Source: Escherichia phage BUCT823. Taken from it: a stretch of DNA of 40,637 nt. Both the position numbers and the translations under genes were made by a program. Within the stretch, counting starts at the first letter, position 1. The number at the start of each line of letters is the position of its first letter. Below, one piece after another: positions 31,242 to 31,684 of the stretch. The DNA lies in sequence record PQ729991.1, one strand, 5' to 3'. Below the pieces are notes generated by a model. The model had not been told where the DNA came from. It saw only the letters and a program-made list of their open reading frames with translations, and did not search any database.

Positions 31242-31343
31242 ATGTTAGTCGTTATTTCAGTAGTAATTGCAGTTGATGCGGTGATGTTTCTTTGGGCTTG
31301 TAGCGGTATTGGTGACATTGACACGGGTAATGGTGAACTATGA
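31242..31343 (+). CDS. small membrane peptide (33 aa)
   Basis: GGGGAGG RBS; ATGA-coupled to the lipoprotein gene. Confidence 0.45.
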   Translation: MLVVISVVIAVDAVMFLWACSGIGDIDTGNGEL

Positions 31344-31684
31344 AATATATTAAATTAGCAGTAGCAGGTGTTGTAGCCGTTTGTTTGAGTGGTTGCGTAA
31401 GGTCGTTGCCAGACCCGGCTTTACAGGTTTATCAGGCAGGGGATACAACGGCAACATGTAATCAGTTACTATCGAGAATCGCCACGACAAAACAAGCTCA
31501 AGCCAACGCTACGCACCGTGTTAATAAGCAAATAGGTACTAACGTTGTACTCGGTGTTACAGGCGCATTCCTGATTGTTCCGCTGTTCTTTATGGACACA
31601 GGCGCCGGGCCTTCTATGGACGAGATGACAGCCGGTAATCGTCTGTCGCAGTTACAACAAACATACGACGAGAAATGCAAATGA
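31340..31684 (+). CDS. lipoprotein (114 aa) with lipobox LSGC and C-terminal hydrophobic segment
   Basis: MKYIKLAVAGVVAVCLSGC signal and lipobox; opposite-strand insert inside the head gene block. Confidence 0.65.
   Translation: MKYIKLAVAGVVAVCLSGCVRSLPDPALQVYQAGDTTATCNQLLSRIATTKQAQANATHRVNKQIGTNVVLGVTGAFLIVPLFFMDTGAGPSMDEMTAGNRLSQLQQTYDEKCK

Follow-up and report, generated by a model that had tools for sequence, protein, structure and literature searches.

The DNA analyzed here is the 40,637-nucleotide sequence of Escherichia phage BUCT823 (PQ729991.1; one strand, called the window below), which comes from a Kagunavirus (Guernseyvirinae), a virulent phage of E. coli/Shigella. We focused on a small lipoprotein cassette, a rightward unit at 31186-31782 that is inserted between a leftward Hoc-like head-decoration gene and the likewise leftward Rz/Rz1 spanin genes. 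In the direction of transcription, the unit consists of a promoter, a 33-amino acid (aa) open reading frame (ORF), a 114-aa lipoprotein ORF with the lipobox LSGC, a 23-aa hydrophobic ORF, and a bidirectional terminator. An earlier note on this DNA (the original prediction) had described the first two ORFs as a hydrophobic peptide and a lipoprotein, and both are present where it had placed them, but it had missed the third one (31681-31752). It had also described the unit as an insert in a leftward block of head genes. The opposite orientation is correct, but the block does not consist purely of head genes, because the neighbors on the left are Rz and Rz1, followed by the genes for the scaffold and the major capsid protein. 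The region around the cassette (30900-31800) matched 180 Guernseyvirinae records from Kagunavirus and Jerseyvirus, and was 99.9% identical to Shigella phage phiSD1.

The sequence of the 114-aa protein has all the hallmarks of a bacterial lipoprotein, i.e. a signal peptidase II substrate. The signal peptide starts with a basic n-region (M-K-Y-I-K, with lysines K2 and K5), continues with a hydrophobic h-region, and ends in the lipobox L16-S17-G18-C19, with a valine in position +2. Judged by its relatives, the ORF is clearly a real gene, since it matched phrog_13472 (function unknown) over its full length with E = 1.2e-44, and since its family comprises more than 1,000 clusters. Initially, 20 homologues were found; the number then rose to 1,047 clusters at 90% identity (E<=1e-5), and a profile search gave 1,464 representatives at 50% identity (E<=1e-3), 713 of them with E<=1e-10. 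Hosts of the family include Proteobacteria, Deferribacterales, Nitrospinota, Planctomycetes, and Omnitrophota, and all members are labelled either "hypothetical" or "lipoprotein". Some of them gave weak matches to the lipid-attachment families LPAM_1 and LptM. For the window lipoprotein itself, there was no match to a Pfam, NCBIfam or PADLOC family, and none to a PDB sequence in a profile search; PADLOC-DB returned zero matches at E<=1 for all three ORFs of the cassette. Literature searches for the motif, the PHROG family or the RefSeq protein found no published work, and those on Kagunavirus lipoproteins and on SieA-region lipoproteins found nothing on this family.

Comparison of 100 family members identified C19 (the lipobox cysteine), D35, C40, N68, L71, G72, G75, P81, F84, D86, R101, L105, and C113 as invariant. 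The family signature, present in the window protein in its entirety, comprises the lipobox cysteine, Q-x-G-D-x4-C, N-x-x-L-G-x-x-G-x5-P-x-F-F-M-D, R-x3-L, and K-C near the end of the conserved core. The 19-residue hydrophobic motif GKNVALGVTGAFLIVPLFFMD (residues 68-86) was nearly letter-perfect across phyla, from Enterobacteria to Planctomycetes, which is the opposite of what would be expected for a receptor-specific binder. A hydrophobic stretch had been noted originally, and it was found at residues 65-86 (Kyte-Doolittle 19-mer means up to 1.97). However, it is not C-terminal, as had been claimed, but followed by 28 polar residues.

Exactly two further cysteines were present in 91 of 96 members, placed 27-28 residues before and 27-28 residues after the motif, and the net charge in the family was +1.25 before the motif and -2.05 after it. 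An AlphaFold2 model built from 100 sequences contained helices at residues 40-73 and 93-112 (block pLDDT 73-88), which flank the unmodelled hydrophobic segment. A Foldseek search of the PDB returned generic alpha-hairpins as best matches, with E above 2. From the spacing, the charge pattern and the model, we infer that the mature protein (95 residues) forms a periplasmic antiparallel helical hairpin, with a Cys40-Cys113 disulfide as a staple and a hydrophobic tip, and that the hydrophobic stretch is not a true transmembrane segment with a cytoplasmic tail. The valine in position +2, in place of an aspartate, makes the inner leaflet of the outer membrane the probable location of the protein. 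In the family, this position is occupied by A, G, V or I, and D was never seen.

The promoter at 31186, already recognized in the original prediction, turned out to be part of a motif of about 32 nucleotides (cTTGCRCAccccAATATAATAGGnTACTATTCA) with five copies in the window versus zero expected. Its two hexamers, TTGCRC and TACTAT, are 17 nt apart, with a TATAAT lying in the spacer. Each of the five copies faces a ribosome-binding site and an ATG further downstream. When the window was mapped to phiSD1 and its annotation, the other four copies were found ahead of an exonuclease cluster, a small repressor-like gene, and two clusters of small genes for hypothetical proteins, and none of the five precedes a structural gene. 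As all copies face non-structural genes, the cassette is predicted to be expressed together with non-structural, probably early, genes, with a transcription start near 31221. A generic sigma-70 scan detected no rightward promoter at the cassette, because the hexamers are imperfect. The same position is marked as a phage promoter in the annotation of fBC-Eco01 (PHIRE). Conservation of the motif well past both hexamers suggests recognition by more than the host sigma-70 factor. At the other end of the cassette, the bidirectional terminator was found as predicted: a terminator scan scored 31757-31777 on both strands, and the fold has a free energy of -17.5 kcal/mol (z = -2.6). There were no Rfam matches in 30700-31900.

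The cassette is carried by 10 of the 180 related records, which represent 8 distinct phages. The remaining records match only up to about position 31237. Across Guernseyvirinae, at least eight other rightward cargos begin at the start point of the cassette. We examined twelve relatives. In these, 23-26 nt separate the conserved TACTATTCA from the start of the cargo ORF, which is preceded by an equivalent purine-rich ribosome-binding site. The ORFs extend as far as the conserved terminator, which is kept at the right edge of the slot also in relatives with other cargos. The alternative cargos are a 179-aa HNH-like protein (in UTEC10 and L223), unrelated soluble proteins of 83, 81, 74, and 67 aa, and a short remnant peptide. 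In Raoultella phage RP180 (3331-3580), the conserved promoter and ribosome-binding site are followed by a rightward 81-aa ORF that is not annotated. The annotated minus-strand gene gp06 of this phage looks spurious, and we rejected it as the slot gene in favor of the rightward ORF.

The GC content of the cassette is 44.6%, compared to 50.8% for the window and 53-56% for the neighboring genes. A block of about 3.3 kb that includes the cassette (29400-32700) is 99-100% identical to phiSD1, versus 87-92% for the flanking head genes, which indicates a recent recombinational exchange. The cassette DNA had no match in 5,426 complete E. coli genomes, and E. coli prophages were rejected as its source on this basis. 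The combination of variable cargos, low GC content, a recombined block, and absence from E. coli genomes makes the cassette look like a textbook moron in a recombination hot spot. In line with this classification, it has its own promoter motif and terminator, atypical GC content, presence in a minority of relatives, and alternative cargos in the same place. The original prediction of an independent accessory unit on the opposite strand was thereby borne out.

The same lipoprotein cassette, in the same slot, was also present in CP088689.1. This record is deposited as the E. coli "plasmid" pC16EC0033-2 from a blood isolate (44,086 bp, circular), and represents a complete Kagunavirus genome, which suggests a carrier state or a contamination that was deposited as a plasmid.

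The two small ORFs beside the lipoprotein gene differ in their conservation. In a divergent kagunavirus contig (L021), the lipoprotein is 82% identical and starts with GTG after a purine-rich ribosome-binding site, and the 33-aa ORF is absent. We regard the 33-aa ORF as optional because this relative lacks it and still keeps the lipoprotein. It is a putative coding sequence that would be dispensable, either as an optional leader or as a small membrane peptide. The pairing of membrane peptide and lipoprotein, part of the original prediction, is not obligatory, as the peptide is missing in this relative and homologues elsewhere stand alone. In AMO_3701M, a diverged short relative of the 33-aa ORF stands alone, and translation from the upstream ATG would end after 10 codons. 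We considered AMO_3701M as a simple deletion derivative of the cassette, and rejected this explanation because the aligned sequences differ too much to support it. The 23-aa ORF was retained in L021 with length and frame intact, even though the nucleotide sequences are only 69% identical. Of the codon changes, 8 are synonymous and 6 conservative, and neither of the other two frames is open. It accompanies all kagunavirus cassettes examined and was never found beside homologues elsewhere. The 23-aa peptide is therefore probably real and specific to the kagunavirus cassette, and its product is probably a single-helix inner-membrane peptide. No homologues and no family were found for either of the small hydrophobic peptides.

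Table 1. Coordinates of the lipoprotein cassette, the copies of its promoter motif, and the adjacent genes in the window.
Feature	Position	Strand	Remarks
Promoter block	31186..31217	+	-35 TTGCGC at 31186-91; 17-nt spacer with TATAAT at 31199-204; -10 TACTAT at 31209-14; conserved TTCA
Strong Shine-Dalgarno sequence GGGGAGG	31230..31236	+	5 nt ahead of the first ATG; read from the sequence
33-aa hydrophobic ORF MLVVISVVIAVDAVMFLWACSGIGDIDTGNGEL	31242..31343	+	TGA stop overlaps the next ATG (ATGA)
114-aa lipoprotein precursor	31340..31684	+	Lipobox Cys19 codon 31394-96; motif residues 68-86 at 31541-31597
23-aa uncharged hydrophobic ORF MTNSVMFYFVLWVSAAAITAMFI	31681..31752	+	ATG overlaps the lipoprotein stop (ATGA)
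Bidirectional intrinsic terminator AAAGCCCC-loop-GGGGCTTT	31757..31782	both	T-runs on each strand; common to the convergent Hoc-like gene
Hoc-like head-decoration gene	31781-32242	leftward	phrog_3945; right neighbor
Rz spanin gene	30481-30867	leftward	phrog_2536, E = 1e-54; left neighbor
Rz1 spanin gene	30372-30635	leftward	phrog_5672, E = 1e-29; left neighbor
Five motif copies	453-473, 1814-1834, 5289-5309, 22636-22656, 31197-31217	-, -, -, +, +	

The surroundings of the cassette have some features of their own. Rz and Rz1 (30372-30867) lie within the block of head genes, and the holin-endolysin genes (about 38640-39730, placed via phiSD1 gp37-39) are located some 8 kb from them. This separation is an unusual split of the lysis cassette, and it is conserved in the group. 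Between Rz and the cassette, there is a 38-aa minus-strand ORF (30962-31078) with a terminator-like hairpin just downstream (30892-30911), and other annotators have predicted leftward promoters near this ORF. This part of the window (30892-31120) belongs to a stretch that is 93-98% conserved over the 180 Guernseyvirinae genomes. It has no Rfam match, and could encode a peptide or a small regulatory RNA.

Homologues were also examined in their genomic contexts. For the closest homologues outside the kagunaviruses, which are 38-45% identical, the immediate upstream neighbor is the ejection-protein gene 16, and mnt/arc/ant and the tailspike gene follow. This arrangement was common to P22-like prophages of Citrobacter and Kluyvera, one metagenomic contig, and three IMG/VR contigs that carry divergent types of gp16. 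In P22 and related phages, the region from gene 16 to the tailspike gene is the site of sieA (PMC10883804). In 10 such loci with a homologue, SieA was not found, neither by its motif nor by tblastn (E above 1.8), in a search in which the P22 positive control worked. In P22-like prophages (about 7930-8000 in L004/L017/L082), the 71-nt gap between gene 16 and the homologue holds a conserved promoter-like sequence, TTACA...N...TAAAT, which suggests that the P22-like homologue, too, may be a transcription unit of its own.

Further homologues were found in other mobile elements. In another podovirus-like prophage, the gene lies between those for an 853-aa virion protein and a tail fibre, and in one case it adjoins the gene for a CI-type repressor. 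Lambdoid prophages of Alcaligenes have it between the N and cI regions, once near an Acb2/Tad1-like gene. Homologues also adjoin the integrases of small islands, and in an F-type integrative conjugative element of Seleniivibrio, one follows TraH and TraG and lies just before restriction-modification or BREX genes. Virulent T7-like phages of Aeromonas (Autographiviridae) have the gene in the early region upstream of the primase gene, and their proteins keep all invariant positions outside the tip.

Other members are found on chromosomes and large replicons. A conserved operon partner was considered for the members at 16 loci in chromosomes and metagenome-assembled genomes (MAGs), and rejected, as no Pfam family was recurrent. 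In Rhizobium pRLG202 (3224-5426) and about 40 related Rhizobium replicons, a family member lies 14 nt downstream of the gene for a TpsB outer-membrane transporter of ShlB/FhaC type, and upstream of a gene for a giant hemagglutinin-repeat protein. This pairing with TpsB was the sole recurrent gene partnership seen for the family, and may reflect an interaction with Omp85-type beta-barrels. In one Rhodospirillaceae MAG, there are four family paralogues (L055, L059, L066, L079), two of them within a few kb of integrase genes.

The contexts of the homologues make an exclusion-type envelope role of the lipoprotein plausible. In the reading that we favor, with a probability of about 0.4, the protein is the lipoprotein of an accessory operon that stops further delivery of phage DNA after adsorption. 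Transcription of the cassette would start at a promoter of the non-structural/early type, run rightward and counter to the late genes around it, and end at the bidirectional terminator. The lipoprotein would be exported, lipidated at Cys19, and placed in the inner leaflet of the outer membrane, where it would form a helical hairpin closed at its base by the Cys40-Cys113 disulfide. The invariant hydrophobic tip might then insert into a membrane leaflet or a hydrophobic protein partner. In the envelope of an infected cell, the lipoprotein would keep incoming phages from delivering their DNA once they have adsorbed to the glycan receptor, and receptor masking would not be part of its action. The co-translated 23-aa membrane peptide may serve as a kagunavirus-specific helper, and the 33-aa ORF would be dispensable. 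Kagunaviruses are reported to depend fully on O-antigen or capsule glycans, and no protein receptor has been identified for them (PMC11990801). A post-adsorption block, or some other generic envelope action, is favored because of these glycan receptors, the lack of Cor homology, the invariant core, and the occupancy of the SieA region. The original prediction had drawn on the analogy with exclusion lipoproteins that block the phage's own receptor. An exclusion-type role does find contextual support, in the SieA region and in other positions associated with lysogenic conversion or in defence islands, but the mechanism known from Cor and Llp is unsupported.

A bolder version of this idea is that the family members are generic envelope "gatekeepers", which were recruited repeatedly by at least four unrelated phage types and by integrative elements. 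The tip of the stapled hairpin would engage a conserved envelope component or leaflet, and block DNA delivery broadly and largely independently of the receptor. We consider this version doubtful.

Several points weigh against a block of DNA delivery. The functional evidence for exclusion is all positional, and the literature contained no experiment on any family member. The other cargos are soluble proteins or an HNH-like nuclease, and the slot itself therefore implies no exclusion. P22 sieA lies on the strand opposite to gene 16, and the homologues share the strand of gene 16, so the analogy between the slots is imperfect. Most of the distant family members are stand-alone chromosomal genes among housekeeping neighbors, including one locus with a housekeeping-like context, and the ancestral role may have been in ordinary envelope physiology. 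The 16 chromosomal and MAG loci had no recurrent neighbor, with 143 different Pfam families in 112 neighboring proteins. On plasmids, the family is rare (44 of 72,556), occurring mainly on Rhizobium chromids and in the one mis-filed Kagunavirus genome. With regard to structure, the hydrophobic tip has a pLDDT below 50 in the AlphaFold2 model, and the Cys40-Cys113 disulfide is deduced from cysteine spacing only.

The known exclusion lipoproteins offer an obvious alternative. T5 Llp and Cor of phi80/N15/T1 are small outer-membrane exclusion lipoproteins that inactivate the protein receptor FhuA. By analogy, the window lipoprotein could bind a protein receptor of its own phage from the periplasmic side and inactivate it, thus blocking the adsorption of superinfecting phages and sparing progeny from being trapped by debris. 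Like Llp of T5, it has its own promoter in a virulent siphovirus, its +2 residue (not Asp) predicts outer-membrane sorting, and the Rhizobium member beside the TpsB beta-barrel gene hints that the family can work with beta-barrels. Nevertheless, such masking, the function suggested in the original prediction, is improbable. There is no homology to Cor, as the match to phrog_1119 (E = 0.29, 12.6 bits) covers residues 1-37 only, i.e. signal peptide and lipobox, and no Llp-like PHROG or Pfam family was matched. Moreover, the dependence of kagunaviruses on glycans leaves such a protein without a known target, and a receptor-specific binder would not be expected to keep its functional core unchanged between phyla and between mobile elements whose receptors are unrelated, as this family does. 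The glycan receptors speak for another scheme, in which the small hydrophobic peptides are the effectors. In this case, they would inhibit O-antigen or capsule assembly in the inner membrane and thus remove the receptor, with the lipoprotein as partner or passenger. The Iap peptide of phage D3 is a precedent for a peptide effector acting on glycan assembly, and the 23-aa ORF is translationally coupled and under apparent purifying selection. Against this, the conserved element is the lipoprotein, which outside the kagunaviruses always occurs without such peptides, the 33-aa ORF is not required, and neither peptide has homologues or a family. We judge this scheme quite improbable.

Alternatively, the protein may be a general envelope or fitness factor, either a surface or serum-resistance lipoprotein like Bor, or a membrane-stabilizing or stress protein that preserves the integrity of the infected cell up to lysis or is useful to a lysogen. 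The architecture is similar to that of lambda Bor (lipobox, mid-protein Cys, N-x-x-L-G-x8-P-L hydrophobic stretch, C-terminal Cys), the gene adjoins Rz/Rz1 on the opposite strand just as bor does, and many family members are stand-alone chromosomal genes in non-mobile contexts. However, in an hhalign comparison with Bor, the aligned part is limited to the signal peptides, with a probability of 15%, the 25 of 44 families listed for 100 members do not include PF06291, serum resistance is useless to a virulent phage, and the closest homologues concentrate at positions of prophage exclusion, immunity and defence. Such a role is therefore rather unlikely in our opinion. The proximity to Rz (about 370 nt from its start) also brings an accessory role in lysis to mind, with the lipoprotein as a unimolecular spanin or as a modulator of Rz/Rz1 or of lysis timing. 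Unimolecular spanins of the T1 gp11 type combine a lipoprotein signal with a later hydrophobic segment, and the window protein is superficially similar to them. Yet the gene is on the opposite strand and has an early-type promoter, the 180 relatives all keep Rz/Rz1 but only 10 of them carry the lipoprotein gene, and the lipoprotein matched no spanin PHROG, although the neighboring Rz and Rz1 did. Furthermore, the distance of about 48 residues between lipid anchor and motif would not suffice to bridge the periplasm, the acidic flank behind the motif, with its conserved Cys, argues against a cytoplasmic tail, and homologues occur in conjugative elements and chromosomes without lysis genes. Taken together, a role in lysis is very unlikely. 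Hardly credible, finally, is a structural component of the virion, as implied by the label "putative structural protein" for HSE2 Gp35 in GenBank (MG252615) and by the location among head genes. A lipidated secreted protein is unlikely to be part of a capsid, its gene has the opposite orientation, and about 170 relatives with the same virion genes do not carry it. The HSE2 label stems from annotation alone, as the paper reports no SDS-PAGE or mass spectrometry (PMC5967307), and we rejected it for this reason.

Few superinfection exclusion proteins are known from phages of Gram-negative bacteria. They are mutually unrelated, and most are specific to one receptor or one ejection machinery. The window lipoprotein is a candidate for a new kind of superinfection-exclusion protein from a large unstudied family. 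Should it indeed block DNA entry, the family would add a new, possibly broad-acting exclusion mechanism. As kagunaviruses serve phage therapy and synthetic biology, a cassette that blocks co-infection would also affect the design of phage cocktails. If the protein is a general envelope factor instead, the gene would be just an ordinary accessory gene.

Comparison with known systems helps to place the lipoprotein. With Llp and Cor, it shares the properties of a small phage envelope lipoprotein encoded in its own transcription unit, including, in the case of T5, in a virulent siphovirus. Llp and Cor exert their effect in the envelope of infected or lysogenic cells. Unlike them, the window lipoprotein belongs to a glycan-using phage group, and its family is marked by a hydrophobic motif that is invariant across phyla and by a predicted hairpin, in place of a surface specific to one receptor. 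There is no sequence relationship.

SieA of P22 acts at the step proposed for the lipoprotein, as it blocks DNA delivery and not adsorption (PMC10883804). The homologues hold the same region, from gene 16 to mnt/arc/ant and the tailspike gene, in prophages without sieA. However, SieA is a different kind of protein, a polytopic inner-membrane protein of 162 aa. It has 3-4 transmembrane segments, lacks a signal peptide, contains the motif FxRYPxEAxxFNK on its cytoplasmic side, and is encoded on the strand opposite to gene 16. The lipoprotein has one hydrophobic segment after the signal peptide, lacks the FxRYPxEAxxFNK motif, and has no tblastn similarity to SieA.

Lambda Bor is a lipoprotein of about 100 aa, in which a mid-protein and a C-terminal Cys flank the N-x-x-L-G-x8-P-L stretch, and its gene, too, is an opposite-strand neighbor of Rz/Rz1. 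The distance from the proline to the C-terminal Cys is 8 residues in Bor and 32 in the window lipoprotein. Bor is expressed from a prophage and linked to serum resistance, unlike the lipoprotein of this virulent phage. The window lipoprotein did not match PF06291 (Bor/Iss) at E<=10. A relationship with Bor is unsupported, as the 15% probability from hhalign was obtained over 18 signal-peptide columns. The Bor matches listed in a homology search were near-identical copies from lambda vectors, all of them at least 92% identical.

There is also a resemblance to the entry and surface exclusion proteins of conjugative elements (F TraT/TraS, SXT Eex, RP4 TrbK). In the known systems, the genes for Eex, TraS, and TraT lie downstream of traG, and TraT and TrbK are lipoproteins. 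One homologue of the window lipoprotein is likewise encoded just downstream of traG in an F-type element. Unlike the conjugative exclusion proteins, the family has no Pfam match to TraT or TrbK, and the association was seen in one element lineage only. Entry exclusion on plasmids was rejected as a role, because the family is nearly absent from conjugative plasmids.

Another exclusion lipoprotein is Ltp of the Streptococcus phage TP-J34, which is reported to block DNA injection after adsorption by binding the tape-measure protein (as cited in PMC10883804 and PMC3952083). Ltp acts in a Gram-positive host, is built from helix-turn-helix repeat domains and thus has a different fold, and has no sequence similarity to the window lipoprotein. 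The kind of element, a moron-encoded and probably phage-excluding envelope lipoprotein, is already known; the protein family and its anatomy are new.

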